From Promethearchaeota archaeon (GTDB lineage Archaea > Asgardarchaeota > Lokiarchaeia > Sigyniarchaeales > SOKP01): a stretch of DNA of 64,000 bases. The stretch lies in contig JBHLPW010000003.1 in the NCBI GenBank assembly GCA_048939015.1, forward strand, positions 32,001-96,000, read 5' to 3'. The position numbers and the translations under genes are program-made. The notes below the pieces were generated by a model. It had not been told where the DNA came from, ran no database searches, and worked only from the letters and a program-made list of their open reading frames with translations. This document shows, piece by piece, positions 28,821 through 52,162 of the stretch; the stretch's first letter is position 1, and each line of letters opens with the position of its first letter.

Positions 28821-28877
28821 TTCAAGCTTAATTTATATTTAACCTACTTTTTTTTTCAGCTTAGAAAGTATATATTT

Positions 28878-29858
28878 CTAAGTGCTATAGACGGTATAAA
28901 ATAATATTCCTTCAAGATACAATGAGAAAATATAATTGTTATTTGCAGGAAAATCATCAGATTTAATACTATATCTATTAATTCCTACTGGTTCCGGATA
29001 AAATTCAAAATTATACATTGTCCTATTAAGGAGGACAGTAGCATATTTATAATTGTATAGAGTAAATTTTGCTCCAATTTCAGGAGAATTATCGTTATAA
29101 TTTAAGATGGTTGGAATATCTATTGCTGTAATAATAGAACCAGTAACATTAGCACCCATAAGTTTATGTTGAGTAATATAGATTTTATTTTTAATCGAAG
29201 AAAGAATCCACATACTATTCTGTGTATATTCTACATTGTAAGATTTCAAAACTAATTTTCCATTCTTTGTAACTCCAGTGATGTTCCCTTCGACAATACA
29301 ATTTGTTAGATCAAAGAATATATCACCGTTGGTAATATTAACATTCAAATTACTAATATGGACATTAAACGGGACAATTAAATCAACATTACCATCCATA
29401 ACGGCAGTAGAAATATCAAAAATCACGCCCTTTCTTAGGGTTACTGTTATTGAGACATCCCTTAATAAAGAATCCACTTCAGATTGAGTTACATTTGAAA
29501 ATAGTCTCATTGAGAAATCATATGGTGAGCTTGTTTTATCACCTTCGCTGATATTAAAATAATTTGAATAGCTTTTTCCCGCTAATCCTGAACCAGCCAT
29601 CTCAACATTTACTTCTATCCTCATAAAATAATCAACTGGGGGATCTATATATTTTATTTCGATATCCCCAATTTCAACATTAAGGTTTAATTTTTCAACA
29701 GCTGAACGGTTATCTGGAGTATAGGGATAAGAATAAGAGTAATTGATTATGCCATATGATGAGAGATTAACTGAGAGTACTCCAATTGGGACTGTGATAA
29801 TAAACCCGAAGCTACTAATCAGTATTATAGTAAATATTATTGCTCCTTTTTTCGCCAT
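28878..29858 (-). CDS. DUF4097/adhesin-like beta-repeat protein, N-terminally anchored, copy 1
   Basis: N-terminal TM; repeated xNGDI/xGNV beta turns; paralog of 31874-32851 and 34917-35909. Confidence 0.65.
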   Translation of the reverse strand: MAKKGAIIFTIILISSFGFIITVPIGVLSVNLSSYGIINYSYSYPYTPDNRSAVEKLNLNVEIGDIEIKYIDPPVDYFMRIEVNVEMAGSGLAGKSYSNYFNISEGDKTSSPYDFSMRLFSNVTQSEVDSLLRDVSITVTLRKGVIFDISTAVMDGNVDLIVPFNVHISNLNVNITNGDIFFDLTNCIVEGNITGVTKNGKLVLKSYNVEYTQNSMWILSSIKNKIYITQHKLMGANVTGSIITAIDIPTILNYNDNSPEIGAKFTLYNYKYATVLLNRTMYNFEFYPEPVGINRYSIKSDDFPANNNYIFSLYLEGILFYTVYST

Positions 29859-29900
29859 ATTTGTTTGCTGTTAATTTGATTTCAGATGCCTATAATTAAT

Positions 29901-29930
29901 TTGATAAGACTCTTTTGTATTTAAATCAAT
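29901..29930 (-). promoter_or_regulatory. conserved TATA-containing promoter of DUF4097-like gene copy 1
   Basis: Minus strand ATTGATTTAAATACAAAAGAGTCTTATCAA; near-identical at 32894-32923 and similar at 35951-35981. Confidence 0.6.
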
Positions 29931-30096
29931 CACTTGCGAATTTGGTTTAAGATGATATAATTGATCTATCACTATGAAATGTATGATCGTAAGATTTAAT
30001 AATATATGAAATTAATTTCTTTGTTACAACAACATTGTGAAATCTCATTTAATATTCAAATTTTCAGAAATTTGAAAAATTCAAAAATTCATTTTA

Positions 30097-31830
30097 ATGA
30101 TTAAAATGGTGGCAGAAAAAAAAAAACCGAAAAAAAAAATTCCTAAATTTAAGGAAATTAAAAAACCTATTATCATTGGGGCTATAATTGCCGGTTTTGC
30201 AATAACGGGAATTATAGTTGGTATTATTATATTAGGTGGTTACGATACAGATAAACCACCTAAAATTTTAACTTTTGGTTATCCTGGTTTACCATTTACT
30301 CTTGATCCACTTGAAGTTGCGTATCCTATAGATATAAATATGCTATACCAAGTAGCTGAAGGTCTATTTGATATTGATGAGAACGGAAACATTATTTCTG
30401 GTCTTGCATATATTAATAATCGTACATGGAGCCAAGATGCGCTAAATTTAACTTGCAATCTTAGAAAAGGTGTTAAATTCCATGATGGAACACTTTTTAA
30501 TGCTTCTGCTGTTAAATGGAATTTTGATAGAATTTATTATTTTCTTAATAATTCACTACTTGAATATCCAGATTTATGGATTTTTCCAGATGGAACTCCC
30601 ATTGTTAATGATACTCAAGTGATTGATGATTACACTGTTAAGTTTGTTTTGAACAAAGCTTTTGTACCTTTCGAAAGCTTATTAGCAACTTATAGTTCCT
30701 TTATAATCTCCCCAACTTCTACACAAGAAGATCGATTTCTCAATCTTGGAAATGATAATATCACCGGAACTGGTGCTTTTATCTTTGAGCACTTCGAGCC
30801 TTCAAAAAATATTTCGATGCTGGCAAACCCAATTTATTGGAATGGTAAACCAAAAATCGATAAACTCATATTAATCGAATTAAATACGACAGACTTTACT
30901 ACTGGTGCCCCACTATTGTCTGGAGACGTCGATCTTATGTTTCGGCATTTTGGGTGGGAAGAAGAAGTACTTGAAACATTCAGAAATAATTCCTCGTTTA
31001 TTGTAGAAGCTGGGCCTTTCTCAAATCTTCGATATCTTGTAATGAATAATGAATTGATAAATAAGACAATGAGAAAGGCAATTTCTTACGCTCTGAATTA
31101 TTCTTTTATCGAAACTCTTGGAGGAATTAGGGCAAAATCTCCTATTCCCGAAAGTATTCTGTATTATAATACTACAGGGATAAATGTACCTTTTTATGAT
31201 GTTTCAATAGCACGTCAAACTTTGAAGGATGTTAATTGGAATAATACTGCTGGTGCTTTAACTGCTGATAATAATATTAGTGCAGGTAATGAATGGGAAA
31301 AATTAGTAGATAATGGAACACCCCTCGCAATATATAATTATACATATGTTAAGAATTCTCCCATTTTTCCCCCCTTAAATTTTATCACATTATTAATTGA
31401 AAACCTCAAACAAATTGGAATAAAAGTTGAACCTTATAATATATCCATTACAAAATATAGCGCACAAAGGTTTGAAACAGGAGGATATCATAGAAATATG
31501 TTCGAACTCTGTTGGGGTTGGTGGGCTGCTGATTATAATGATCCATCCACTTTTATTAATCCACTCTTTACTAATGAAACGGTTGCATTTAATACAGGTC
31601 AGGTTAATGATCATCTCACACAAATGTGGATGACTGAAGCTTTATCAGAAACTGATCCAATAGCTCGAAAGGATTTATATTATGATATTCAAAAACATCT
31701 TATTGAAGAAGTATATCCCATTGCGTTTTCTTACTCTACAGTTTTAGCAGCAATTTATGATTCAAATATCAATGGCTGGAGTACCAATTCTTGGAATTGG
31801 CCCTTTAAAAATGTCTGTTTTGATTTATAA
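30097..31830 (+). CDS. family 5 solute-binding protein, membrane-anchored, copy 2
   Basis: LRKGVKFHDGTLFNASAVKWNFDR, GTGAF, RKAISYA, ADYNDPS. Confidence 0.92.
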   Translation: MIKMVAEKKKPKKKIPKFKEIKKPIIIGAIIAGFAITGIIVGIIILGGYDTDKPPKILTFGYPGLPFTLDPLEVAYPIDINMLYQVAEGLFDIDENGNIISGLAYINNRTWSQDALNLTCNLRKGVKFHDGTLFNASAVKWNFDRIYYFLNNSLLEYPDLWIFPDGTPIVNDTQVIDDYTVKFVLNKAFVPFESLLATYSSFIISPTSTQEDRFLNLGNDNITGTGAFIFEHFEPSKNISMLANPIYWNGKPKIDKLILIELNTTDFTTGAPLLSGDVDLMFRHFGWEEEVLETFRNNSSFIVEAGPFSNLRYLVMNNELINKTMRKAISYALNYSFIETLGGIRAKSPIPESILYYNTTGINVPFYDVSIARQTLKDVNWNNTAGALTADNNISAGNEWEKLVDNGTPLAIYNYTYVKNSPIFPPLNFITLLIENLKQIGIKVEPYNISITKYSAQRFETGGYHRNMFELCWGWWAADYNDPSTFINPLFTNETVAFNTGQVNDHLTQMWMTEALSETDPIARKDLYYDIQKHLIEEVYPIAFSYSTVLAAIYDSNINGWSTNSWNWPFKNVCFDL

Positions 31831-31873
31831 AAATTTTAATCCATAGAAAATTCACGTTGAGAAAGAATATAGA

Positions 31874-32851
31874 TTAATAAACATTGTTGGTATTTATTTT
31901 ATATTCAAGTACATAAAAAAAAAGCTCAAAATTATTTTCAGCTGGAAAATCCATTGATATTAATTGAAATCCTTTTGGAAACAATGGATGATTGAGAGGA
32001 TCGTCGAACCCGTCTATTATTTGTCCCCCTGATTCCCAATGAGTCAATGGAAAATTAAACAATGCACCAACTTTAAAAGATTGATCTCTATAAATTAAAT
32101 CATATAAAAATTCAGCGAACACAGAACCAGTTATATTAGCACCCATTTCTATATATTGGTATACTTGTAAATCCATCTTACCGTCTTGAGTAGTAAGATT
32201 CCAGATCACGTTCTGTGTACATTGAATGTTATTTACTATAAATTTCATATCTCCATTATTAGTGCTCCCTGAGATGTTTCCCTGTAGTATGCAATGATTC
32301 AAATCATAAAAAAGGTTGCCATTAGTTGTATTTATTTCTAAATTATTAACAGAGACTCCATAGGGGATATTTAATTCAATATTTCCTTCATTTACAGTAG
32401 TTTTAATCTCAAAAATTATATCAGCTCTAAGAGCAACAACTATTGTAATATTCTGAATTAAAGACAGTACTTCTACTTGGTTAATATCTGATCTAAATTT
32501 CATAGAAAAATTTACTGGAGAATTTATATTCTGCCAATTAATATCAAAAAAATCTGAATAGTCTTTCCCAGCCAGTCCAGGACCTGTCATCTCAAGATTC
32601 ACATATATACTCATATAATTATCAATGGGGGGCTCTACATACTTTATCTCGATATCTCCTTTATCAATATCAATATTTAATCTTTCAATTGAAGAAGGTA
32701 TATCTGGTGTATATTCGAAGGGCAAGTTAGTATAATTAATTTTGCCATAGGATGAGAGATTTACAGAAAGAACACCAATAGGAACTATAATAATTAATCC
32801 GAATCCAAAAATCATCAATAGACCAATTAAAAATGTTCTTTTGTTCGCCAT
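31874..32851 (-). CDS. DUF4097/adhesin-like protein, copy 2
   Basis: Shares VPIGVLSVNLSSYG, GLAGK.YS, MGANITG, DFPA.NN with copies 1 and 3. Confidence 0.65.
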   Translation of the reverse strand: MANKRTFLIGLLMIFGFGLIIIVPIGVLSVNLSSYGKINYTNLPFEYTPDIPSSIERLNIDIDKGDIEIKYVEPPIDNYMSIYVNLEMTGPGLAGKDYSDFFDINWQNINSPVNFSMKFRSDINQVEVLSLIQNITIVVALRADIIFEIKTTVNEGNIELNIPYGVSVNNLEINTTNGNLFYDLNHCILQGNISGSTNNGDMKFIVNNIQCTQNVIWNLTTQDGKMDLQVYQYIEMGANITGSVFAEFLYDLIYRDQSFKVGALFNFPLTHWESGGQIIDGFDDPLNHPLFPKGFQLISMDFPAENNFELFFYVLEYKINTNNVY

Positions 32852-32893
32852 TATGGTTTATTCCCACAATGAATTCATAAACCTTTAATTATT

Positions 32894-32923
32894 TTGATAA
32901 GATTCGTTTGTATTTAAATCAAT
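32894..32923 (-). promoter_or_regulatory. conserved TATA-containing promoter of DUF4097-like gene copy 2
   Basis: Minus strand ATTGATTTAAATACAAACGAATCTTATCAA, matches 29901-29930. Confidence 0.6.
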
Positions 32924-33169
32924 CTTTAACTATTCTATTTGTAGAACAATTAAATATTTTTTATACAGGCTTTCCCTTGTTATCCTTAGTTTGCGTTCAT
33001 TAAAGGTAAGAAAATTTTTACAAATGCTAGAAGTGGGGTATTTCTATCCAATTATCCTAATAGTAAACTTTAATTATAACTTTGACAAATTTATAATATA
33101 TTACGAAAAAGTGAAATCTAATTAAGAATATCAAATCATTAAAATCCATCTATATAAGGGGGACTATTA

Positions 33170-34879
33170 ATGAATGAGAAAAAAATACCTAAAAAGAAGA
33201 GATTTCTTCCTACCCATAAGCCGATTGTTGTTGGAGGATTAGTTGCCATTGTATCACTCGCAGGGATTATCACAGGTGTTGTTTGGTATATTAATAGGCT
33301 AAAACCAGGAGAACAAACACTTATCTGGGGTGTAGGGGAAGCTCCCTTGTGGGAAATTGATCCACTCGAACTTTGGTGGCCAGTACCCCTTGTTGAAAAT
33401 TCTGCTGAAGGATTATTCGCTGTTAATTTAACTAATCCTGAATCAGATATTCTTCCAAATTTAGCATTAGATGGGATATGGAGTCTAGATGGTTTAAACT
33501 TTACTTGTCCACTTAGACAAAAAGTTAAATTTCATGATGATACTCCGTTTAATGCTATTGCAGCCAAATGGAACTTCGACAGAGTCCATAGACTAAGTGA
33601 TGCTTTAACGTATCCAGAATTGTGGAAACTTCCAGATGGTAGATTCATAATAAATGAAACGATTGTTATAGATGACTATACGATAAGGTTTGTGTTAAAC
33701 GCACCCTACGCTCCATTCAAGAATTTATTGTCTGCATGGCCTTCGTATATACTATCCCCTACGTCTACTCCCGATGATGAATTTCTTAACCCTAATACCG
33801 AATTTTTAGTCGGAACTGGTCCTTTTATTTATGACCATCTAGAAGTCAATGTTTCCTTCTCAATGTCTGCCAATCAAGATTATTGGGGTGGTAGACCACA
33901 AATCGATACAATAAATTTCACAGTAATTCCTGAGGAGATGACAGGAATAGAACCATTTTTATTAAAAAAAATTCACCTTGGACGTCTAGTTCTTAATCAA
34001 ACAGAGCTCAAAAAGCTCCAAGATGATCCTTCTTTTAATGTAACAGAACATCTAGTGCCGCGGGTGCGATGGTTAGTACTGAATAATAAATTAATAAATA
34101 CTACGATGAGAAAAGCACTCTCATATGCAGTTAATTGTTCTACTATTAATGAATTTTTTGGTGATACAATATTGGCTAAATCACCCATTCCAGAAAATGT
34201 ATTGTATCATAATATAACAGGGATTAATATACCATATTATAATGTTACGATAGCAAGGCAGATTTTAAAAGACGCTGGATGGCCTGGAACAGAAAATTTG
34301 ACTGCAAATGGAGATGTAAGTCCTGAGAATGAATGGGAAACGGTAGCAAATAGTTCAACACCTCTGGCAACTTACAACTACACAATTTTCGATTTCTGGG
34401 AGGCTGCGGATGTAAATCATACAGGAGCTGTATTGGTCGAAAATTTTAAACAAATTGGGGTTAAGATAGAACTTGTTTCCGTTTCTTATGACATAATGAA
34501 TTGGATGGAATGTGATCTATATGGTTATCATAGAAATATGTATCATATGACTTTTACAGGATGGATAGCAGATATTAACGATCCTTCTAACTTTATTAAT
34601 GCACATTTTACAACCGAGAAGCTTGCCTATTTTGAAAATTATAATTATGGTCAAGTGAATGATACTTTAGTACAACAATGGATGGAAGAAGCTTTAACCC
34701 CAGGAAATAGAAGACAACTATATTATCAAATTCAAAAACATCTTATTGAGGAAGTATATCCCAATATTTGGCTTCATTCCACATCTTATTACGTTGTTAC
34801 GGTATCTAATTTAGAAGGTTATTATCCTAATTGGTTTAGACCTTATTATTGTAGATTTGTCTATTTTAAATCACAATAA
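33170..34879 (+). CDS. family 5 solute-binding protein, membrane-anchored, copy 3
   Basis: LRQKVKFHDDTPFNAIAAKWNFDR, GTGPF, RKALSYA, ADINDPS. Confidence 0.92.
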   Translation: MNEKKIPKKKRFLPTHKPIVVGGLVAIVSLAGIITGVVWYINRLKPGEQTLIWGVGEAPLWEIDPLELWWPVPLVENSAEGLFAVNLTNPESDILPNLALDGIWSLDGLNFTCPLRQKVKFHDDTPFNAIAAKWNFDRVHRLSDALTYPELWKLPDGRFIINETIVIDDYTIRFVLNAPYAPFKNLLSAWPSYILSPTSTPDDEFLNPNTEFLVGTGPFIYDHLEVNVSFSMSANQDYWGGRPQIDTINFTVIPEEMTGIEPFLLKKIHLGRLVLNQTELKKLQDDPSFNVTEHLVPRVRWLVLNNKLINTTMRKALSYAVNCSTINEFFGDTILAKSPIPENVLYHNITGINIPYYNVTIARQILKDAGWPGTENLTANGDVSPENEWETVANSSTPLATYNYTIFDFWEAADVNHTGAVLVENFKQIGVKIELVSVSYDIMNWMECDLYGYHRNMYHMTFTGWIADINDPSNFINAHFTTEKLAYFENYNYGQVNDTLVQQWMEEALTPGNRRQLYYQIQKHLIEEVYPNIWLHSTSYYVVTVSNLEGYYPNWFRPYYCRFVYFKSQ

Positions 34880-34916
34880 TTAGCCTGTTCAGTCAGTAAA
34901 TATTAAATATTTGATA

Positions 34917-35909
34917 TTAAGTGGAATTATTAAAGCTCCATAGGTGTTGTATGTCGATCACTGTTAAATTAAATAACAAATTATAGTTGTTTTTAGCTGG
35001 AAAATCAAAAGATTGATAATAATGACCAGTTTGATTTATGTTATCGATTTTGAATCCTACACTTGGAGGAGGAAAAAGGGGAGCAGGTTCTAAAGGAAAC
35101 CTAAATAAGGCTCCAATATTTGTACTAGCATCTTCATAAGTAAAGCTTAAAATACCTCTATTTTTTATCATGGTGCCTGATACATTTGCCCCCATTTCTC
35201 TATAGTGATATATTTCAAGATCCATATCACCATTTAGTGTAGATAGACTCCATGTACTGTTCTGAGTATATTCCGCATTACGAGAATTTAGAATTAAATC
35301 TCCTGAATTAATAATTCCGGTTATGTTACCGTAAATTATACAGTCATCAAAATCATATTTGATATCCCCGTTTTTTACATTTACTATTAGATTTTTAAAA
35401 GAACCACCCCACGGAACATTTATTTCAACATTTCCTTCGTTTAAAGTTGCGATTATATCGAAAACAATACCTTTTCTAATAGTTACATCTACTTTAATCT
35501 TTTGCGTGAACCATATTGAAGGGTTAAACCATTCATCTGATATAACCTCAAGAGTAAAATTTTTTTGAAGGGAATTATCCTGCCAAGTAATATTAAAATA
35601 ATCTTCATATGATTTCCCTGCTAATTTAGAACCACACATTTTAATATATACCTCTATTTTTACAAAGTAACCAACATCAACGGAGGGGTCGATATAATTT
35701 ATTGTGATGTTTCCTACATCGATTTTAAGATTTAATATTTCTATAGATGGTGTATTTGGATCAGTTTCAAAATTAAGTGGCTCTTGAGTAATATACGTGT
35801 CATAAGTTGACAGATGGCTTGAAATATACAAAATCGGTATAGAACTAATAAGAAGAGTAAAGATGATAACCGTTATACTAATACTCCTTATGATATGTTT
35901 TTTCATCAT
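34917..35909 (-). CDS. DUF4097/adhesin-like protein, copy 3
   Basis: N-terminal TM; LAGKSY, NEGNVEI.VP, NGDI, EMGANVSG, DFPAKNNY. Confidence 0.65.
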   Translation of the reverse strand: MMKKHIIRSISITVIIFTLLISSIPILYISSHLSTYDTYITQEPLNFETDPNTPSIEILNLKIDVGNITINYIDPSVDVGYFVKIEVYIKMCGSKLAGKSYEDYFNITWQDNSLQKNFTLEVISDEWFNPSIWFTQKIKVDVTIRKGIVFDIIATLNEGNVEINVPWGGSFKNLIVNVKNGDIKYDFDDCIIYGNITGIINSGDLILNSRNAEYTQNSTWSLSTLNGDMDLEIYHYREMGANVSGTMIKNRGILSFTYEDASTNIGALFRFPLEPAPLFPPPSVGFKIDNINQTGHYYQSFDFPAKNNYNLLFNLTVIDIQHLWSFNNST

Positions 35910-36202: not shown

Positions 36203-37243
36203 GTGTGTAGTCTATTTTATATCTCCCGTGGTCGTAAAAGGGATATAATACATGATAAAATGCTAATGTATGGATTTGCCAGTTTTTGGTTTAGTATCGC
36301 ATTAGCAAGAATTTATTTTTTTTTTGCTGATTACTTTTTAGAAGGAACATATAGCGGCGATTTAAGCCAAATTTATCTCACTTTCAACACCATAAATTAC
36401 GTATTGATGTACTTTTATCTTTATTTATACATATTTATACTTGTGAGTGTGGTCTCCTTAAGTATAATTTTCATTTGGTTTTCGATAAGATCAAGTAAGG
36501 AATTCAAAGCGATTTCCTCAATAATGACAATAGGTTATGCAGTATTTTTAGTAGGATGGGTGTTTGAGACTATGGTAATCAAATATGAAAGTTATGTGGC
36601 ACCTTCAATTCCACCTATACTTATGATTATTGGGGCACTTGTAGCAATGTCACCATTGATAATTGATCTTCAATTTTTTGCGAAATCTTTTGTTAACTGG
36701 ATAATAATAGTTTCAATTGCTTTCATATTCCTTGCTTTATGTTTAACCTTATTCACACAATTACCAACACTGATAATAATTCAAATTATTATAATATTTG
36801 CTTCTTTTGTTCTGGTGTTTGCGCTTCTTTATATCTCGATTAATGTCTATAAAGTTTATAAATCTCCAAAGTCTTTAATGGAAGATCAAGAAAAAGAACT
36901 TAGAGATTTTATACGAGCCTTTTCAAAACCTCAAAGGATTACAGAAGAAGAAGTGCAAATGTATAAACAAAAGATGATTTGTCTTGTATGTAAAAGTCAT
37001 ATTTCACGTGTTAACTACGTTTGCCCTGAGTGTAATGCACTTTATTGTATCAAGTGTTCAAATGCGCTGAGTAATTTAGAAAATGCATGTTGGGTGTGTG
37101 ATACACCATTTGATGAGTCTCGACCAATACAACCTCATGAGGTGGTTGAAGAAGCTTTAGGTTTTGAAGAACAGATTATCGCAGAAAGTGAAGTAGGAGA
37201 ACCACATAAAGCTTTAAAAAAGGCAAAAAAAATCAAAAAATAA
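36203..37243 (+). CDS. polytopic membrane protein with C-terminal C4C4 RING-like zinc finger (candidate E3)
   Basis: ~6-7 TM helices, then C-x2-C-x10-C-x2-C-x4-C-x2-C-x10-C-x2-C at 36980-37099; frame is open upstream to 36128, so start uncertain. Confidence 0.75.
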   Translation: MCSLFYISRGRKRDIIHDKMLMYGFASFWFSIALARIYFFFADYFLEGTYSGDLSQIYLTFNTINYVLMYFYLYLYIFILVSVVSLSIIFIWFSIRSSKEFKAISSIMTIGYAVFLVGWVFETMVIKYESYVAPSIPPILMIIGALVAMSPLIIDLQFFAKSFVNWIIIVSIAFIFLALCLTLFTQLPTLIIIQIIIIFASFVLVFALLYISINVYKVYKSPKSLMEDQEKELRDFIRAFSKPQRITEEEVQMYKQKMICLVCKSHISRVNYVCPECNALYCIKCSNALSNLENACWVCDTPFDESRPIQPHEVVEEALGFEEQIIAESEVGEPHKALKKAKKIKK

Positions 37244-37622: not shown

Positions 37623-37880
37623 ATGCGAATCAGTGTGGAAGATAGTCGTACTGGAAAGCTAATTAAATTAGATGTTAAAAATCACCATCAGATTGAAAGA
37701 ATAGTTGATATTATCATAAAGCATATGGGTATTATAAGCGCAGAACAACGTTCGTATACACTTGTCCTCAAAGATCAAGAGTTACCAAATACAATAACTA
37801 TTGAGGATGCCATTCACAAATTCGGATTACAAGAAAATGATAAGTTAATTCTATGGGCTAAAGTTATTGGTGGATTTTAA
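37623..37880 (+). CDS. ubiquitin-like protein (beta-grasp) precursor ending GG-F
   Basis: MRISVEDSRTGKLIKLDV...LVLKDQEL...TIED...GLQENDKLILWAKVIGGF follows the ubiquitin pattern; adjacent to E2/E1/JAB; track start GTG 37611. Confidence 0.85.
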   Translation: MRISVEDSRTGKLIKLDVKNHHQIERIVDIIIKHMGIISAEQRSYTLVLKDQELPNTITIEDAIHKFGLQENDKLILWAKVIGGF

Positions 37881-37906: not shown

Positions 37907-38467
37907 CTAATCATCTATAATTAAAACATCCTCCTCTTCTTCCTCTTTTTCCTCAATCTGTTCTTCAGCAATATTGAGTCCTTCTTTAATCTCACTCATT
38001 GTCTTATTTCTAAATAATTCTGCAGCTTCTAAACATATTGGATAATTAAGAGGATCATCAGGATTTGGATTTTCTACTAAATTTTTAAGTGCTTTAGCTG
38101 TAGTTTCTAAATCAGATAACCGCGACCACTTTTTCAAAACATTAAGACAAATGTATCCTGTACCAGGATTTCCTTGGGGAATTTGAACAGGATGAATGTT
38201 AGGATGAAATATATGCGTTATCCAGGAGAAATCAATTCCGCCGGGATATGGAAATGATCTATTAATTTTCAAGAAAATGCGATGTGATCTTTGTGGTATA
38301 AGTTCTCCTTTATTTTTAATAAGTCCTAAAGCATTTATATTTATTGTGAACTCAACACTAGATTCCCCTTTAAGAACGGTATTTTCTTCCAATACCTTTA
38401 ATTTTTTTATATTTGTGAGTTCATTTTCAATTCTGTCCTTCCAAATTTCATAAGGTAATTCTGGCAA
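37907..38467 (-). CDS. ubiquitin-conjugating enzyme E2
   Basis: RIENEL, FPYP, IFHPNI...GYICLNVL..W, NPNPDDPLN..AA; TTG start preceded by GAGGGG. Confidence 0.93.
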   Translation of the reverse strand: MPELPYEIWKDRIENELTNIKKLKVLEENTVLKGESSVEFTININALGLIKNKGELIPQRSHRIFLKINRSFPYPGGIDFSWITHIFHPNIHPVQIPQGNPGTGYICLNVLKKWSRLSDLETTAKALKNLVENPNPDDPLNYPICLEAAELFRNKTMSEIKEGLNIAEEQIEEKEEEEEDVLIIDD

Positions 38468-38580
38468 TTCTTTTACCCCTCATTAATTTTTTAAAATTAA
38501 ATCATAATTATTATTAATTTTTTTCTTTATTATTTTTTGGATATTTTTAATTTTATTATATTCAACTTTTGTGAGCTTTT

Positions 38581-39462
38581 TCAATCTTTTTTATCATAGG
38601 AGCACGTCCAACATTCAGGATTCTTCAATTTTTCAACAACTCTAAATTTATTTAATAATCCATTATAGTTTAACTGTTTACCAATCAAAGGTTTACCTAT
38701 ATAAGTATCCCATTTACCATGTTCTTTAAAATAATCTAAACCTAAGACAAATTTTAATACTTGTTGTGATTGGAGGCCTCCAATAATTGATGTTGTAGTT
38801 ATAATTGTTGCTACTTTTGCCACAGTTTCACCATTTTCACTCTGAATTTCTTCACCAGTACAAGAAAATTTTTTCCACATTAAATCTAAGTCTGCATTAG
38901 AAATACTACATTGCAAACATGCAGCATCTTTCTCTTCAGAATAAACTGCTTGAACACTACCAAAAAACTCTTCAATCCCAGAATCCACGAAAGGCACTCC
39001 ATAATAATAAGCATAATTATTTGCTTGTAGTCTAGCCTCTACATTATCGAGACACGAACATATAACATCAGATTTTTGATAAAGAGTCTTATCAATATCG
39101 TTTAAATCCTTTTTTATTGCTACAATTTCGCTATCAGGATTTAATTCTTCGCATGCATTTTTCACAACATCTACTTTATATTCTTTATTTTGAGCACTTT
39201 GGTTATTAAATAACACACATCGATTTAAATTTGAAATATTTATAAAATCATAGTCTACTAATATTAATTTACCGACACCAGTTAACACTAAATTTTTCAC
39301 AACTTCATTTCCTGTGGCACCAACCCCGATTATGAGAACTGTAGCGTTAGAAATCTTTTTTTGATCCCAACCCTCAATACGTTTTTGACGATCAAATTTA
39401 TCTGAGTCTATAGATTCAACTCCAAAGACTTCATAATCTGCTTTTTTTTCTTTACTTGGCAT
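38581..39462 (-). CDS. ubiquitin-activating enzyme E1 (ThiF/UBA family)
   Basis: FDRQ, GVGATGNEVVKNL, DYD...SNLNR, LDNVEAR, CLQC and CWTC Zn pairs, putative catalytic FSCT; likely start ATG 39462 (track 39510). Confidence 0.93.
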   Translation of the reverse strand: MPSKEKKADYEVFGVESIDSDKFDRQKRIEGWDQKKISNATVLIIGVGATGNEVVKNLVLTGVGKLILVDYDFINISNLNRCVLFNNQSAQNKEYKVDVVKNACEELNPDSEIVAIKKDLNDIDKTLYQKSDVICSCLDNVEARLQANNYAYYYGVPFVDSGIEEFFGSVQAVYSEEKDAACLQCSISNADLDLMWKKFSCTGEEIQSENGETVAKVATIITTTSIIGGLQSQQVLKFVLGLDYFKEHGKWDTYIGKPLIGKQLNYNGLLNKFRVVEKLKNPECWTCSYDKKD

Positions 39463-39481
39463 ATACTCAATATTTATAAGG

Positions 39482-39985
39482 TTAATTCGAATTAAAGTCC
39501 ACAACTGCATAACTTACTTCTTTATAACCCTTTTCTGAATTTTTATCAAGAGTATAAAATTGGGAATCATCGTCAACTGGATCGACAACTAATGCTACTT
39601 GATATGATTCTGGAAAAAAATATTTCTGAGTTTTTACGTCTGTTTTAGACAAAAAACAACCGAATCCTGGATGTGAGTGCCACCAGCCTACTATTCTTAA
39701 ACTCTCATCCTTTCTTCTTCTTTTTAATCTTTGAAATTTCTTATCATACTTTCCCGCAGCACCCTCTATTTGAGCTGTAGAATATTTATCACTATAAATG
39801 GCACCTAAAAGAAAAAGAAGTTCTTCTATTTTAACATAAAGTTTCTCGTCCCATTTCAATATATTTCCTATTAAATATCCAAAAATTTCATTATGAAAGT
39901 TTTTACATAATATCTTTATCCTATTTAAGACATCTTTTTTAATATATACTGGAAATACAAAATTTTCTTCAAATGTCATTATCAT
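39482..39985 (-). CDS. JAB/MPN+ (JAMM) metalloprotease, Rpn11-like
   Basis: [26 protein letters not shown] (HxH-x7-S-x2-D), ALVVDP. Confidence 0.93.
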
Positions 39986-40902
39986 TAATTTTTCTTAATT
40001 TCTTTTATTGAGCGTATAGAAAAATTCTCACTCTTTTTTAAAATTGAGATTTCTAACATATTTTTTATTATTTGATTAATTTGGTCTCGCGAATTTCCTT
40101 GAATCGCAGAAAACCCAAATGTTTTTAACCCAAAAGACTCATTAATTTTGCTAGGTTCAAATGCAGAGTTAATAGAGTCTTGGAAATTTGCGAGTATATA
40201 AAAATCGATATTTTTAACTCTCTCTTTTAATCTTGAGTATAAATTACTAGTTCGGCTTAAATTACCAGCACCAGAGTTGGTAACTATACAAATTATATTA
40301 ATCTTGGCAATTAAGGGTTTATAATTACTGAAGTTTTCTACTAAATCTACTAAATTTATTTCTCTTATAACAAACTCATTAATTCCTTCTAAGTTAGAAA
40401 TCTTCACTGTTTTTTCTACGATCTCATTCATCTCATCATCAATTTCTAATACAGTTTCTCCAGGAAATAGATTCATAATTGTTGATTTTCCTACACCGTC
40501 CTCACCTGCTAATAAAATCTTGGGTGGGATTATAATATTATTTTCTATAAAATTACCAAAATCTTTAATCTGAGGGCTCTGATCATTTCCTGTTCCCAAT
40601 CCATTCTTAAATCGTTTGAAAAATTCTTCCTTCACCAACTCTAACTTATACATTACTTCATCTTCCGGATCATAATGATCAGTCGTAACTATGAATACAT
40701 AATCTTGTCGACCATAGGTATATACAAAATTAAAATTCTCAAAATTTAATGATCTTATATATCCTCCTTCAATCTTTTTACAAACACGTGTAATAAGAGT
40801 AAGAAAGCTTACGATATCATTATTTATATGATCAGCACCATAAAATGATTTAAAATAGCGGACTACTCCATCCAATGTAATAATATAGATATTCGATATC
40901 AT
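39985..40902 (-). CDS. longin-like domain + atypical small GTPase, copy 1
   Basis: N-terminal longin-like fold; [15 protein letters not shown]-loop; ANFQD (G4), FSAI (G5); stop overlaps JAB start (TAATG). Confidence 0.8.
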
Positions 40903-41030
40903 ACCAGAATTTTAATTTTCTCTTTTTCTTACTTTTGACTTTAACTTTTCTTATTTTTTTAATAAATATATGTAATATAATTACATGAACAATGAAATTG
41001 TATTCTTCTTACTTTTTGATAATTAAATCT

Positions 41031-41927
41031 TTAAATTTGCTTACTTTCTATTTTTTCTATTATTGAAATTTTTATCATTTCACTAATTATTTCAAGTATC
41101 TTTTCTTCAGCTTCCTTTTTAATTGCACAAAAACCATACGTTTGCATACCAAATAATTCTTCTACTTTTTCTGGTTCATATGATGTATTTTCTAGATCTT
41201 GAAAATTAGCTATCACATAATAATCCGCTTTTTTGACTATTTTTTCTAATTGAGAGTAAAATCTTTGAGTTCTACCTAAATTACTTGCACCAGAATTAGT
41301 AACAATGCAAATTATATCGACTGAATCCAATATTGGTCTATAAATTTTAGAATTTTTAATCAATTCCTCCAAATCAAATTCCCGTAATACTATCTCCTTT
41401 ATTCTTTTAAAATTAGATAAGGGGATAGATTTTTGAATAATTTCATTCAAGTCTCCATCAAGTTCTAACACAGTTTCTCCAGGTAATAAATCCATGATGG
41501 TTGTTTTTCCTACCCCCAGTTCGCCTACAAGCAATATTTTGGGCGGGATAAAGATGTGGTTTTCTGCGAATTCATCAAATACTTCGAATCTTCCTGTTTC
41601 ACATTTCCAATTTATTAAATCATCGTGAAATTGTCTAATAAATTCATTTTTCATTAACTCTAGTTTATCTTGCGCTTCCTCTTCAGGATCATCAATCTCT
41701 GTAACAATAATAAACATACATAACTTTTCATCGTCATATGTATATACAAAATTAAAATTTCTGAAATTCAACGATTTTATTTCGCCCCCGCCAATTTCCT
41801 TTGCAATACTACTAATTGCTGTAAGGAATCCGCTTACTAAATCATAATCCATGTCATCGCTTCCCACAAATGTCTTTGAATAACAAAGAACACCATTAGC
41901 CATTATTATGAGTATTTTAGATATCAT
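41031..41927 (-). CDS. longin-like domain + atypical small GTPase, copy 2
   Basis: NGVLCYSK...LVSGFLTAI longin-like; GELGVGKTT; ANFQD; FCAI. Confidence 0.8.
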   Translation of the reverse strand: MISKILIIMANGVLCYSKTFVGSDDMDYDLVSGFLTAISSIAKEIGGGEIKSLNFRNFNFVYTYDDEKLCMFIIVTEIDDPEEEAQDKLELMKNEFIRQFHDDLINWKCETGRFEVFDEFAENHIFIPPKILLVGELGVGKTTIMDLLPGETVLELDGDLNEIIQKSIPLSNFKRIKEIVLREFDLEELIKNSKIYRPILDSVDIICIVTNSGASNLGRTQRFYSQLEKIVKKADYYVIANFQDLENTSYEPEKVEELFGMQTYGFCAIKKEAEEKILEIISEMIKISIIEKIESKQI

Positions 41928-42051
41928 TTTGAATTTCTTATTTTATTCTATTAATAATTAATTTAATAATAGAGTTGAGTATTATTTAAAATAACTGTGC
42001 GGAATTATCATTGTCATTATGAATATCCCTTTTAAAAATCTGTGAAATGAT

Positions 42052-42207
42052 ATGGGTGAAGAAGAAAAGGATTCAAAATCAAATGATCATTATCCAACAA
42101 TAATATCTTACGAAGATCGAGAAATTAAAGAACAAAAACCTCCAAATGATAAAATTATTAGTTATAAAATCGTAGATGAGAAAATAAATTCAGATTCTGA
42201 AGATTAA
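42052..42207 (+). CDS. putative small acidic protein (51 aa), not in ORF track
   Basis: MGEEEKDSKSNDHYPTIISYEDREIKEQKPPNDKIISYKIVDEKINSDSED*; purine-rich codon usage; fills an otherwise empty 310 bp gap. Confidence 0.45.
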   Translation: MGEEEKDSKSNDHYPTIISYEDREIKEQKPPNDKIISYKIVDEKINSDSED

Positions 42208-42236
42208 TTATCAAATCTCATAAGATCTATAGAGAT

Positions 42237-43184
42237 CTAGTCTACGTAAATAATAATATCATCATCTTCTTCCTTTTTAGATTCATCAATAGCTTTTTTG
42301 TTATTATGTTGTTTTTTTAGGATCGTTCTATTTACCATTTCTTCTATAATCTTATAAATTTCATTCCTTGCTTTTTTTGATATTGCTGAAAGCCCATACG
42401 TTTTTACTCTAAAAAATTCTTCCACTTTTTCAGGAACAAGTGCTGTATTAAAATCCTGGAAGTTAGCAATAATATAAAAATCTGCTTTTTTTATCTTTTG
42501 TTCTAACAATGAAAACATCCTATGTGTATTACGTAGATTCATTCCTCCTGAATTTGTTACAAAACAAATAATATCAACAGAATCTAAAAGTTGCCTATAA
42601 TTATTTTGATTATCAACTAGATCTTGTAAGTCCATCTCTCTTATTACAATCTCCTGGATTTCCTCTAGATTTGGTAGTTTAATTGACTTCTCTACGATGT
42701 CATTGGTATCTTCATCAATTTTTATTACCGTTTCTCCAGGAAATAAATTGAAGATGGTCGATTTCCCAGTACCCGGAACACCAACTAATAAAATCTTAGG
42801 AGGTATAAAAATGTGAGTATTAATATATTCATCAAAACTTTCAAACTTTCCAACATCACAATCCCAATTTTTAATTTCCTGTCGATATCTCTTGAAAAAT
42901 TCAAATTTAAGCGATTCTAATTTATATCTTACTTCCTCTTCAGGATCATCAATATTGGTTACTATAATAAAAATCCAATTCTTCTCATAATCAAAGGTGA
43001 ATACAATATTAAAATTTCTAAAATTTAATGATCGTACCTCTCCCCCACCGATCTCGCTCGCTATATTGCTAATTGCTGTGAAAAAGCCACTTATAAAATC
43101 TTCATCAATAGACTCTTCGCTAAAAAATGATTTTGAATAGCATAGAACTCCACTCGCTTTTATTATGAATATTTTTTTTATCAT
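42237..43184 (-). CDS. longin-like domain + atypical small GTPase, copy 3
   Basis: Start MIKKIFII (43184) aligns with paralogs; GVPGTGKST; ANFQD; LSAI; acidic tail EEDDDIIIYVD. Confidence 0.8.
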   Translation of the reverse strand: MIKKIFIIKASGVLCYSKSFFSEESIDEDFISGFFTAISNIASEIGGGEVRSLNFRNFNIVFTFDYEKNWIFIIVTNIDDPEEEVRYKLESLKFEFFKRYRQEIKNWDCDVGKFESFDEYINTHIFIPPKILLVGVPGTGKSTIFNLFPGETVIKIDEDTNDIVEKSIKLPNLEEIQEIVIREMDLQDLVDNQNNYRQLLDSVDIICFVTNSGGMNLRNTHRMFSLLEQKIKKADFYIIANFQDFNTALVPEKVEEFFRVKTYGLSAISKKARNEIYKIIEEMVNRTILKKQHNNKKAIDESKKEEDDDIIIYVD

Positions 43185-43227: not shown

Positions 43228-45111
43228 TTAATATGATTCCTCTATCATCTCAAGGAATATATCAGCTATATTAAGCCATTTATTTTTATGTTCAGGCTCT
43301 AATGTTTCTTTTTTTGTCAATTCTTTCCCTTTTTTGAGATATTTAATAGATTGATCCTTGTTTCCTAAATGTTTATAGCAAATTCCTAATTTTATATAAG
43401 TTTGATTAATATACCATTCTTCAGGACTTAATTCAACTACTTTTTGAAATTGCACTAGTGCTTCATGGTAGTTTTGGTTATACATTAGAATCTCCCCATA
43501 TGTATCTAGATAAGTAGGATTATTTGGAGAGTTCAAAATAAGATTCTCAATGATTTCTAACGATTCATCTTTTTGATCCATATACTGCAACCAGTAAGCT
43601 TTGTACATAAGTAAATCTTTATCATCTGGGTAATCTTGAAGTAATCCTTCTATAATTTCAAATCCCGCTTTAAGTTTGTTTATTCGTTTTAGAATTGATG
43701 CTTTCTTAATTTTGATTTCTCTCCTATTCTCTGGAAATTTGTCAACCATTTCATCTAAATCCCTTGAAGCTTCATTATAACGACCTAAATAAATCAAAAT
43801 TTTAATTTTAGAATAATAATTCTCCATATTCTGTGAATTTTTACTAATTTTCTCATTTATGTTTAAAAGTTCTTGTTCATATTGATTTTCAGATTCTTGA
43901 AATAACTCAGCCATATTTTGCCAAATAATTCCCTCTAATTTATCCCCAATCCCTCTTAATTCAGGCTCTGTTTCAATTTTATATGCTAAATAATTAATAT
44001 AATCAGGTAAAAAATTATACAGGGATTCTTCTAATCCTTTAATAAATAATTTATCTAAGCATTCTTCTAGAATTTTATCAATAATTAACTGTTTATTTAT
44101 TGATTTTGAAAAGAGTCTATTAAAGTAAGTCAACATAGTAACATGTTCTTCTGTTATCGCTCTAAGCATCATTTCAATTTTTTCATTTTCTTGAAAATAA
44201 TAAATCTGGTCTGATGAAACTTTTAATTGAAAAAATTTAATCGGATATAATCCATTTTCTACAATTTGATCAATGTAATAAGTAAGGGTATTCTCTTTAA
44301 TGCCATATTTCTTTGAAAATGTCTCAGGTGATTCATAGTTAGGAAATTCATTAGGGTGATTTACTGAAAGAAATAGTATAATTTTGTTAAAATCATCCTC
44401 ATTTTTTAGCAATGATTCCACTCTGGTATAATCTAATTTTACAATATTGTTTAGAAGCCTAAATTGTAAGAATTCATCCTCAATCTTATTTTTTTTAAAA
44501 AAATCAATAGTCTTGTTAGTGATTTCCTCAACTCGCTTACTTTCTCTTTCTAAAATTGATTGTCTGTCTAAATTGTAATTTTGTAGCATATAGGCATACT
44601 CGACTTTCCCTTTTCTTGTGATTTTATATTCCTTGCTCTCATCATCCTTTTCTACTAAACCTTCTCTTTTTAATTGTTTTAAGTATTTTGATAGTGAGGT
44701 TTGATTGATTGCAACAGGCTCTTCGAGAAAATCAGACCACTTACAGTAGCTATTGTTATAGAGCATCCATAATATCCAATGATCATAATTCCTACCTTTC
44801 TTTAGGATAATATTTGGCGGAAAGTTTACTTTTCTTATTTCTACTGCATTTTGAGACAATTTATTGAATCGAATTATCCCATCTGGGGTAATTTTATAAT
44901 GCCCTATATCAGATTTAACTATTAAACCTTGATTTCTTAGAACTCTTAAATATCTTGACAATGTAGAAGTTGGAATTTTAAGGTTAACAAAATCAGACCA
45001 CTCACTATCATCATTATTACTCAACATCCAGAGAATAATATGCTCATAATTTTTCTTATCCATTGCTGGAGGGTTGAGAATCTCTTGAGGAGGGTAAATT
45101 TTCACTGGCAT
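43228..45111 (-). CDS. double winged-HTH + TPR putative transcriptional regulator, copy 1
   Basis: Two MarR/ArsR-like wHTH repeats (TSTLSRYL...GLI...YKITPDG; QTSLSKYL...GLV...YKITRKG) and C-terminal TPRs (YLDTYGEIL). Confidence 0.8.
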   Translation of the reverse strand: MPVKIYPPQEILNPPAMDKKNYEHIILWMLSNNDDSEWSDFVNLKIPTSTLSRYLRVLRNQGLIVKSDIGHYKITPDGIIRFNKLSQNAVEIRKVNFPPNIILKKGRNYDHWILWMLYNNSYCKWSDFLEEPVAINQTSLSKYLKQLKREGLVEKDDESKEYKITRKGKVEYAYMLQNYNLDRQSILERESKRVEEITNKTIDFFKKNKIEDEFLQFRLLNNIVKLDYTRVESLLKNEDDFNKIILFLSVNHPNEFPNYESPETFSKKYGIKENTLTYYIDQIVENGLYPIKFFQLKVSSDQIYYFQENEKIEMMLRAITEEHVTMLTYFNRLFSKSINKQLIIDKILEECLDKLFIKGLEESLYNFLPDYINYLAYKIETEPELRGIGDKLEGIIWQNMAELFQESENQYEQELLNINEKISKNSQNMENYYSKIKILIYLGRYNEASRDLDEMVDKFPENRREIKIKKASILKRINKLKAGFEIIEGLLQDYPDDKDLLMYKAYWLQYMDQKDESLEIIENLILNSPNNPTYLDTYGEILMYNQNYHEALVQFQKVVELSPEEWYINQTYIKLGICYKHLGNKDQSIKYLKKGKELTKKETLEPEHKNKWLNIADIFLEMIEESY

Positions 45112-50251: not shown

Positions 50252-52162
50252 TTAAGGAGATAATAGAATCTTTTGTTCCTCTATCTCAGCAAGAAAAAGG
50301 TCTACAATTGCTAACCACTTGTTTTTTGATTCAATATCGCTAGTAATTTTGTTTGTTAATTCTTTTCCTTTCCTGAGATTTTCAAGCGCTAAATCAATAT
50401 TATCAAGTGCAGAATAGCAAATTCCAATTTTGATATAGGTCTGGTAGATAAACCACTTATTTGGATCAATTTCTATGGTTTTTTTAAACTCTTTTATGGC
50501 TTTTTCATATTCTTTAAAGGTTATTAAGATTTCTCCATAGGTATCATGATAAATTCCTTTTTTTGGTTCGCTTTCGGTGAGGCTCCGAAGGATTTTCAAT
50601 GCTTCTTGTCTCTTACCTAAATATGATAACCAATAAGCTTTATAATTATAAAGAGAATTATCATCAGGAAATTTTTCGAGTAATTCTTCAATAATTTCTA
50701 ATCCCGCCTCCAAATTTTTATCTTTTTTAAGAGTATATGCCTTTTTTATCTTAATATCAATCTCCTTTTCTGGAAATAATGCTCTCATATTCTCTAACAC
50801 TGTTAGAACCTCGTTGTATTGATTAAAATAGATTAGAATTCTAATCTTTGAATTATATAATTCATAATTATTAGGGTTTCTACTGATTTCTTTATCAATT
50901 TCTTTAATTTTTTCTTCGTACTGAGATTTAAAATTTTCAATATTCTGCAATTCCAAAATGTCTGTCATGTTCTGCCAAATTATGCCTTCTAACTTATCAT
51001 AAGTATCTTTTAATTCTTTTTTTATCTCCATTTTATATGCTAAATATTTGATATATCTTGGTAAAAATTCACTCAATGATTCCTTGAAATGTTTATTGAA
51101 TAAGGTTTCACAAATTTCGTCAAGAATATTCTCTATAATAAAGTCAAAACTCCCAGATCTCCCAAATTTCTCTAAATATTTGTTTGTTGCAATATGTTCT
51201 TCAGTTATAGCTCGAAGGATCTTCTCTAATTTTTCATCCGAATGAAAATAGTAATGTTTATTTGGAGAAATATCTAATTTAAAAAACTTTAAGTCATATA
51301 AGTCGCTTTCTACGATCTCATTTACCCAAAAATCAAGGATTCTCTTTTTGATTTCATAAAATCTCGAAAATTCCTCAAAAGATAAATAGTCAGGATAAAA
51401 ATCGGGATGATTTATCGATAAAAAAAGTAAGATTTTATGAAAATCCTCTTCATTTTTTAAAATTGCTTTAACTTTTGAATAATCTAATTTTAACACATTA
51501 TTCAAAAATCTAAATTTGACCTGATCATCTGAAATACTATATTTATTAAAAAACAGTGAAGTCTTTGTAGTAATTTCATCAATCCTTTTCTTTTCTTCCT
51601 CCAATATTGTTTGTCTATCCAAATCATATTGCTGTAAAATTCTCGAATATTCAGATTTGCCCGATTGAGTAATTATATATCTTTTATTTTCTTTGATGAT
51701 AAAACCCTTTTGAGTCAATAAATCTAGACTTTTTGATAAAGAGGATTGATTTATAGATAGTGGTTCTTCAAGAAAGTCAGTTCTTTTGCAATAACCATTA
51801 TTATAAACCATCCATAGAATCCAATGAGGATAATTTCTACCTCTTTTTAAGATAATATTAGGTGGATAATTCAGTTTACGTTTTATTTTTCTTTCTTTTG
51901 ATAACTCATGAAATCTTCTTCTTCCTTCTGGAGTTATCCTGTATTTTCCTCTAGAAAACTTTTCTATAAATCCGTTGAGGATTAATTTTCCTAAATGACG
52001 TGATATTGTAGATATTGGGATTTCCACTGGCTTTTGCTCAAAATTAGACCATTCACAACTTTCATTATTAGCTAATATCCAAAGGATTATCTGTTCGTAA
52101 TTCCTTCTTTGCAGTTCTGAAGGGTTAAGAACCTCCTTAGATGGATAATTAAATTTTCCCAT
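50252..52162 (-). CDS. double winged-HTH + TPR putative transcriptional regulator, copy 2
   Basis: Paralog of 43228-45111 (PPNIILK.GRNY.HWILWM.YNN, DKLEGIIWQNM, DTYGEIL). Confidence 0.8.
   Translation of the reverse strand: MGKFNYPSKEVLNPSELQRRNYEQIILWILANNESCEWSNFEQKPVEIPISTISRHLGKLILNGFIEKFSRGKYRITPEGRRRFHELSKERKIKRKLNYPPNIILKRGRNYPHWILWMVYNNGYCKRTDFLEEPLSINQSSLSKSLDLLTQKGFIIKENKRYIITQSGKSEYSRILQQYDLDRQTILEEEKKRIDEITTKTSLFFNKYSISDDQVKFRFLNNVLKLDYSKVKAILKNEEDFHKILLFLSINHPDFYPDYLSFEEFSRFYEIKKRILDFWVNEIVESDLYDLKFFKLDISPNKHYYFHSDEKLEKILRAITEEHIATNKYLEKFGRSGSFDFIIENILDEICETLFNKHFKESLSEFLPRYIKYLAYKMEIKKELKDTYDKLEGIIWQNMTDILELQNIENFKSQYEEKIKEIDKEISRNPNNYELYNSKIRILIYFNQYNEVLTVLENMRALFPEKEIDIKIKKAYTLKKDKNLEAGLEIIEELLEKFPDDNSLYNYKAYWLSYLGKRQEALKILRSLTESEPKKGIYHDTYGEILITFKEYEKAIKEFKKTIEIDPNKWFIYQTYIKIGICYSALDNIDLALENLRKGKELTNKITSDIESKNKWLAIVDLFLAEIEEQKILLSP

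Follow-up and report, generated by a model that had tools for sequence, protein, structure and literature searches.

Acidic-aliphatic C-terminal tails in an Asgard archaeal ubiquitin-like system: putative docking motifs for the system's own ubiquitin-like protein

The window analysed here is a stretch of 64,000 nucleotides from a Promethearchaeota archaeon (contig JBHLPW010000003.1, positions 32,001 to 96,000). It contains a gene cluster for a ubiquitin-like protein (Ubl; 37623-37880, plus strand) and its conjugation enzymes, and it raises the question of why two proteins of this one locus end in so similar a way. One is the E2 conjugating enzyme (186 residues; 37907-38467, minus strand; Pfam UQ_con, E 2.7e-10), whose HPN motif and catalytic Cys107 are invariant in the alignment. 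The other is the third of three longin-GTPases, GTPase 3 (315 residues from an ATG, likely start at 43184; 42237-43184, minus strand). The E2 ends in an acidic run, four aliphatic residues, DD and the stop (37907-37954), and GTPase 3 ends in a similar putative motif (42237-42278), identified from its sequence and by a profile of E2 tails; both are as quoted in the first-pass annotation of this DNA. We conclude that the tails are probably short linear docking motifs for the Ubl of the same locus, a putative strand-addition handle working like a SUMO-interacting motif (SIM) or UBA5's UFM1-interacting sequence (UIS).

Is the resemblance between the tails real? A regular expression fitted post hoc to both matches 2 of 4249 predicted proteins, only the E2 and GTPase 3, but this is circular. 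A less circular test used a position-specific scoring matrix built only from the tails of 118 E2 homologues. With this profile the C-terminus of GTPase 3 scores 20.0 bits, the highest of any protein of the genome other than the E2; the next best score is 16.4 bits, for an internal site in another protein, and the next C-terminal site reaches 11.2. Conservation among orthologues, which the first-pass annotation had proposed as a check, was found for both tails: the motif is kept in 118 of 120 E2 homologues (one exception differs in a single flank residue and the other is truncated) and in all five complete GTPase-3 orthologues. The aliphatic core is IIII in 68 of the 118 E2 tails, with I/V/L variants in nearly all the others, and D/E occupies 94-100% of positions -1 and -2 to the core.

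Synonymous codons vary freely in the tails, and I/V/L and D/E interchange, and the constraint therefore lies at the level of the protein. This largely refutes the suggestion that the tails reflect a constraint on the DNA, such as a pyrimidine-rich terminator for a converging gene, or plain low complexity. It is true that each of the two tail genes faces a converging plus-strand gene no more than 30 bases away, and that acidic codons are T/C-rich on that strand. However, the motif persists where there is no converging Ubl gene (loci L036, L038 and L039), and distant relatives keep the aliphatic core with basic flanks, so that we regard this explanation as extremely improbable.

In the AlphaFold2 model of the E2, residues 168-186 have a pLDDT below 50, and the tail is thus predicted to be disordered. 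The tail also persists in Sigynarchaeum, despite deletion of the preceding linker helix and a Ubl gene located elsewhere. Conservation, codon variation and disorder together indicate that the E2 tail is a linear motif under selection, carried on a flexible tether. An alternative identity, the C-terminal HbYX motif of the proteasome gate, is ruled out by the tail sequence. A DNA pattern scan of 61 relatives for other proteins ending in the motif gave nine matches, four of them the E2s and one a 507-residue reductase-like open reading frame (ORF), which is not above the reversed-pattern control; a wider set of clients was therefore not found in these relatives.

Not every E2 has such a tail. It is absent from two further E2s of the same genome, encoded beside or near E1s of 415 and 527 residues. 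These belong to two more Ubl/E1/E2 systems (C5:30770-36216 and C17:29378-34351), whose Ubls end in AG and have acidic N-terminal extensions. In the Sigynarchaeum genome G340 the E2 and Ubl genes lie on separate contigs (L038 and L184), and tail and basic groove are both retained. A tandem double E2 of 352 residues (L075:3398-4456, P0121) has an acidic aliphatic tail, apparently lacks the catalytic Cys in both domains, and has no Ubl gene nearby.

What, then, do the tails bind? The wider E2 clade was reached by profile search, and cognate Ubls were taken from the loci and from natural Ubl-E2 fusions, giving 111 scored tail-Ubl pairs that we grouped into 15 lineages. Two classes of tail occur: acidic ones, such as the present E2 tail, and basic ones, typically P-R/K-I/V-I/V. 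Acidic tails pair with a basic β2-α1 segment of the Ubl (37656-37727, plus strand, in the window); where the tail is basic, the segment is acidic or neutral. Across the 15 lineages the charge of the tail flank and that of the β2-α1 segment are strongly anticorrelated (Spearman rho -0.83, permutation p 0.0002); for the four residues before the core alone, rho is -0.67. The remainder of the Ubl gives +0.17 to +0.22. Proteome composition would push both charges in the same direction, and so does not explain the negative sign. In sliding windows over the Ubl the strongest signal is on α1 (rho -0.91, family-wise p<0.001), and among individual columns Arg26 is the best. On the E2 tree, three contrasts between sister lineages (L073/L194, P0139 clade/clade B, and L192/P0150-L152) all have the predicted direction. 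On the basis of this co-variation and the alignment to ubiquitin, we propose the β2-α1 segment as the groove that binds the motif. The first-pass annotation had suggested recognition of the Ubl by short linear motifs and had pointed to the basic β2 strand (GKLIKLDVK, 37653-37679, correctly quoted). The general idea is partly supported, in that the motifs are conserved and the β2-α1 groove is the partner best supported by charge co-variation, but the stronger signal is on α1 and not on β2.

In some of these sequences (P0139, P0141, P0150, P0210, L188-L190 and L196) Ubl-GG-E2 is a single natural precursor chain, which the JAB protease presumably cleaves. In another group (P0145, P0158, P0165 and others) the N-terminal Ubl lacks the GG, and the tail is absent.

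The Ubl itself is predicted to adopt a β-grasp fold, and ends in GG plus one residue. Its fold matches are tied among ubiquitin, SUMO and other Ubls (Z 10.5-11.9), but its identity in the structural alignments is 27-30% to ubiquitin and only 14-18% to SUMO, and in sequence alignments (as distinct from a tree) it is closest to ubiquitin and to the Caldiarchaeum Ub. A Rad60-SLD match in the Pfam scan is below the cut-off. The top 50 fold matches include neither UFM1 nor ATG8, but kinship is not thereby excluded. The SUMO-like logic proposed in the first-pass annotation is thus not supported as it stands: the Ubl is not SUMO but is nearer to ubiquitin in sequence, and many relatives have the reversed charge code. 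In an ungapped alignment to ubiquitin, Lys19, Arg26, Val18, Ile27 and Leu16 stand at the positions of the aliphatic HS1 pocket and basic prongs, Lys19 and Arg26 being at what we take to be the positions of SUMO1 Lys39 and Lys46. These two lysines are the basic prongs of the SIM-binding groove (PMC12751080).

A number of observations weigh against docking on the Ubl. The 15 lineages, grouped by ourselves, are not strictly independent, and the base of the tree is unresolved; a formal independent-pairs test on the E2 tree finds only two well-supported pairs, so that significance is unreachable. Acidic tails occur in only some four or five lineages, and in some of the lineages with basic tails the groove is neutral (L188-190, L193). 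Two Lokiarchaeia E2s (L180, L181) have lost the tail while their Ubl is unchanged, and the Desulfurococcales E2s have no tail. Ile30 of the Ubl stands at the position of SUMO1 Ser50 and may narrow the groove. Finally, a helix of the E2 itself (residues 124-135) also co-varies with the tail charge (rho -0.81, family-wise p 0.02). Co-folding of the Ubl with E2 residues 154-186 gave a score of 0.04 against a mark of 0.32, in a run without controls, and is used neither for nor against the proposal.

The co-variation of residues 124-135 would be expected if the tail bound to the E2 itself, in cis or within an E2 dimer, in an autoinhibitory or stabilising role. We consider this very unlikely. The AlphaFold2 model leaves the tail unpacked, the signal from the Ubl is stronger, and the same motif is found on E1, on a conserved 51-residue ORF, on RING-like proteins and on GTPase 3, none of which has an E2 fold. 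Alternatively, the tail could recruit the E2 to E1 or JAB, in place of a missing ubiquitin-fold domain and in a reversal of the UBA5-UFC1 arrangement, with GTPase 3 as a competitor. An E1 that consists only of a ThiF domain does need another route for E2 recruitment, and the tail-less E2s of the same genome adjoin or lie near long E1s. However, no window of E1 or JAB co-varies with the tail charge beyond chance (p 0.52 and 0.94), although this comparison has only 9-10 lineages and low power, and on those lineages even the Ubl reaches only p 0.07-0.09. Moreover, E1 itself bears the same kind of motif. Recruitment to E1 or JAB is therefore also unlikely.

If the tails dock on the Ubl, as we propose, the four aliphatic residues would add a strand to β2, with the acidic flank meeting Lys19, Arg26 and Lys33-His34. 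E1, E2 and proteases hold the opposite side and leave free the face that carries a SIM-type groove (PMC12687455), and a tethered motif can thus raise the local concentration of Ubl. The E1 of this locus (293 residues; 38581-39462, minus strand) has a ThiF/MoeB adenylation domain only. This E1 has no ubiquitin-fold domain, and the tail would therefore serve the E2 in locating Ubl that is bound to E1. Like the UBA5 UIS and the SIMs of SAE2, the tail would also hold Ubl that is thioester-linked or has already been conjugated, and it would bind modified targets. The motif on E1 would anchor the Ubl, as the UBA5 UIS does (PMC5428781). GTPase 3 would have gained the handle late and kept it, and would serve one sub-lineage as a reader of the Ubl or as a preferred target.

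Related segments occur on several neighbouring proteins. The N-terminal segment of E1 (39412-39438, minus strand) is acidic and aliphatic in Lokiarchaeia and in L073, and basic in lineages with basic E2 tails (L040, L041, L191 and L194); several E1s have no such segment. In loci of the basic type, the basic motif is found 30 times in proteins other than the E2, mostly at the termini of the neighbours, compared with a mean of 10.7 (maximum 21) in shuffled sequences. A similar excess of the basic motif in Lokiarchaeia loci was rejected as a free motif, being mostly the first strand of the GTPase domain.

A previously unannotated ORF of 51 residues lies on the plus strand at 42052-42207, between the genes for GTPases 3 and 2. 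It has P-x-I-I and K-P-P elements and is conserved in about 35 Lokiarchaeia loci and about 19 distant loci, with a median flank charge that flips from -2 (n=35) to +3 (n=19). It is joined to the N-terminus of JAB in L152, L154 and L155, and to membrane proteins in L073/L194. The product is likely to be a cofactor of the JAB/MPN+ protease (39482-39985, minus strand; Pfam JAB, E 1.9e-10) or a Ubl adaptor.

Beside the Ubl gene is a gene for a membrane protein (36203-37243, plus strand) with a C-terminal zinc finger (36980-37099) of C4C4 type, which has eight Cys with RING-like spacing and a W ahead of the last pair. The finger resembles RING, FYVE and p44 fingers only weakly (E 0.2-0.8), and the genome has about 13 fingers of a similar kind. 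The protein often adjoins this Ubl cluster in relatives. Its orthologues often end in an acidic-aliphatic sequence; in L192 and L194 there are soluble forms, and these have the basic motif. From its sequence it is a candidate E3, which makes doubtful the earlier suggestion that the substrate is recruited without one. It is worth adding that in L073 (2516-4019) two membrane proteins downstream of an acidic-tail E2 have repeated N-terminal acidic aliphatic motifs, and are candidate clients.

By the established logic of such cascades, E1, E2, protease and RING have just one partner in common that each must contact, the Ubl. It is conceivable, and we suggest this only tentatively, that archaeal Ubl cascades with a minimal E1 use a general charge-coded strand-addition code, in which the same handle for the Ubl groove is shared by the E1 and E2, a peptide cofactor of JAB, a RING-like protein and the clients, the sign of the code having flipped several times, and new clients such as GTPase 3 join by capture.

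How did GTPase 3 come by its tail? GTPases 1 (39985-40902) and 2 (41031-41927), both on the minus strand, have none. The C-terminal extension of GTPase 3 (42237-42320) consists of a linker followed by the motif. A complete GTPase 3 is present in only five of 54 genomes of the genus, and all five have the tail. In the GTPase tree the GTPase-3 sequences form a clade (support 100), and their sister group (support 97) comes from a second subclade that has only one GTPase, without a tail. To this sister subclade belong all of the five E2 tails with the linkers most like that of GTPase 3. There a helix-turn-helix and TPR (HTH-TPR) gene lies directly upstream of the cluster, in the same order as for GTPase 3 here. 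Shuffle tests on single linkers gave fractions of 0.015-0.33, and comparison of the GTPase-3 and E2 linkers at the DNA level gave no informative signal. The tail was probably captured, in one event, from the 3' end of an E2 gene of the sister subclade: a second, foreign copy of the operon would have lost JAB, E1 and most of the E2 in frame, leaving the GTPase joined to the E2 tail. It follows that the two tails are probably not independent, and the earlier description of two unrelated proteins sharing a tail holds as to the sharing, while the tails themselves are probably homologous.

A tail acquired in this way might be a mere passenger of the gene fusion, without a role, the E2 tail alone being functional. 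The restriction of GTPase 3 to about five of the 54 genomes, and its sister relationship to the GTPase of the subclade with the best-matching linkers, would both fit this. However, identity among the five orthologues is 78% in the motif and only 37% in the linker, which suggests, from five sequences only, that selection acts on the motif and that it is probably used. We therefore regard a passenger tail as rather unlikely. GTPase 3 is missing from most of the relatives searched, and so cannot be the general substrate of the system.

All three longin-GTPases have a P-loop (intact in GTPase 3), lack DxxG, and have NFQD in place of NKxD at G4, and because of these changes they may be switches without normal hydrolysis. 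In some relatives the paralogue is a fusion protein of about 880 residues whose C-terminal part is long. In G005 there is a second, incomplete 3' end of GTPase 3 (L211:1456-1743), with a tail identical to that of G026; it is either a duplication remnant or an assembly chimera.

Atg3 is an E2 with its own Ubl-binding motif, of the LC3-interacting region/Atg8-interacting motif (LIR/AIM) type. The UIS of UBA5 is C-terminal on its E1 and contains a Trp, and UFM1 has an end unlike the GG of the present Ubl. With which of the known systems should the tails be compared? They resemble SIMs of the anti-parallel type, as found in SAE2, SENP and SUMO E3s (PMC12751080, PMC12687455), in having a four-residue aliphatic core after an acidic run in a disordered region, a partner with basic residues at the positions of Lys39 and Lys46, and motifs on several enzymes of one cascade. 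The SIM core has the pattern ψ-ψ-x-ψ or ψ-x-ψ-ψ, with ψ an aliphatic residue, and the cores of the tails conform to it. They differ in that the motif is built into the E2, whereas UBC9 relies on the SIMs of E3 ligases (same reviews), in that many relatives reverse the charge code, and in that the partner is not SUMO. Because of this last difference we do not count the tails as SIMs, but only as putative Ubl docking motifs.

The UBA5 UIS (PMC5428781) also belongs to a minimal ThiF-type E1. This motif lies outside the adenylation domain and anchors the Ubl by the side opposite to the Ubl C-terminus, with a contribution from charge complementarity, and the arrangement here is putatively alike; the E1 has a ThiF domain only, and its N-terminal segment flips charge in several, though not all, lineages. 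In contrast to UBA5, the E1 motif here is N-terminal, the E2 has its own copy, and JAB matures the Ubl. LIR/AIM motifs use the same groove as SIMs, with a shared HS1/HP2 pocket (PMC12751080), but the E2 tail has no aromatic anchor (none of the 118 E2 tails has an aromatic residue at the start of the core, as W/F/Y-x-x-L/I/V would require), and the Ubl model opens directly with strand 1, without the two N-terminal helices of ATG8-type partners. The Ub-E1-E2-srfp-Rpn11 operon of Caldiarchaeum and Asgard archaea (PMC5654768, PMC6043591) likewise has an archaeal pro-Ubl, E1, E2 and JAB in one cluster. Here, however, the E2 is of another clade, the E1 is shorter, and the neighbours are longin-GTPases and a membrane RING-like protein; in a Nitrososphaeria locus of the Caldiarchaeum type (L042) the E2 lacks the tail motif. 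In the literature searched, which did not cover subscription journals, we found no report of motifs of this kind from archaeal Ubl systems.

The host assembly is 4.86 Mb, and the closest relatives of the E2 are from Promethearchaeota/Lokiarchaeia. The plus strand of the locus encodes the membrane zinc-finger protein, a PLDc_N protein and the Ubl, and the minus strand encodes GTPases 3, 2 and 1, JAB, E1 and E2. Two paralogous double-HTH and TPR proteins are encoded on the minus strand at 43228-45111 and 50252-52162, and in many relatives one such gene is directly upstream of the GTPase cluster. On the other side, at 26997-35909, are three tandem pairs in which a gene for an ABC-type substrate-binding protein (plus strand) converges on one for a membrane-anchored β-rich protein (minus strand).

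What would this mean for non-covalent recognition of ubiquitin-like proteins? Reading of the SIM type is described as a hallmark of SUMO that is lacking in ubiquitin (PMC12687455). The same groove serves UFM1 and ATG8. The proposal offers a mechanism by which an E1 without a ubiquitin-fold domain could hand over the Ubl to its E2; it also gives an instance in which capture of a tail brought a longin-GTPase into a Ubl pathway. As a small archaeal system of four proteins with natural charge-swapped variants, it makes docking directly testable. If the general code suggested above is true, non-covalent reading of Ubls of the SIM, UIS and LIR type would predate the eukaryotes, and would do so in the Asgard lineage itself.

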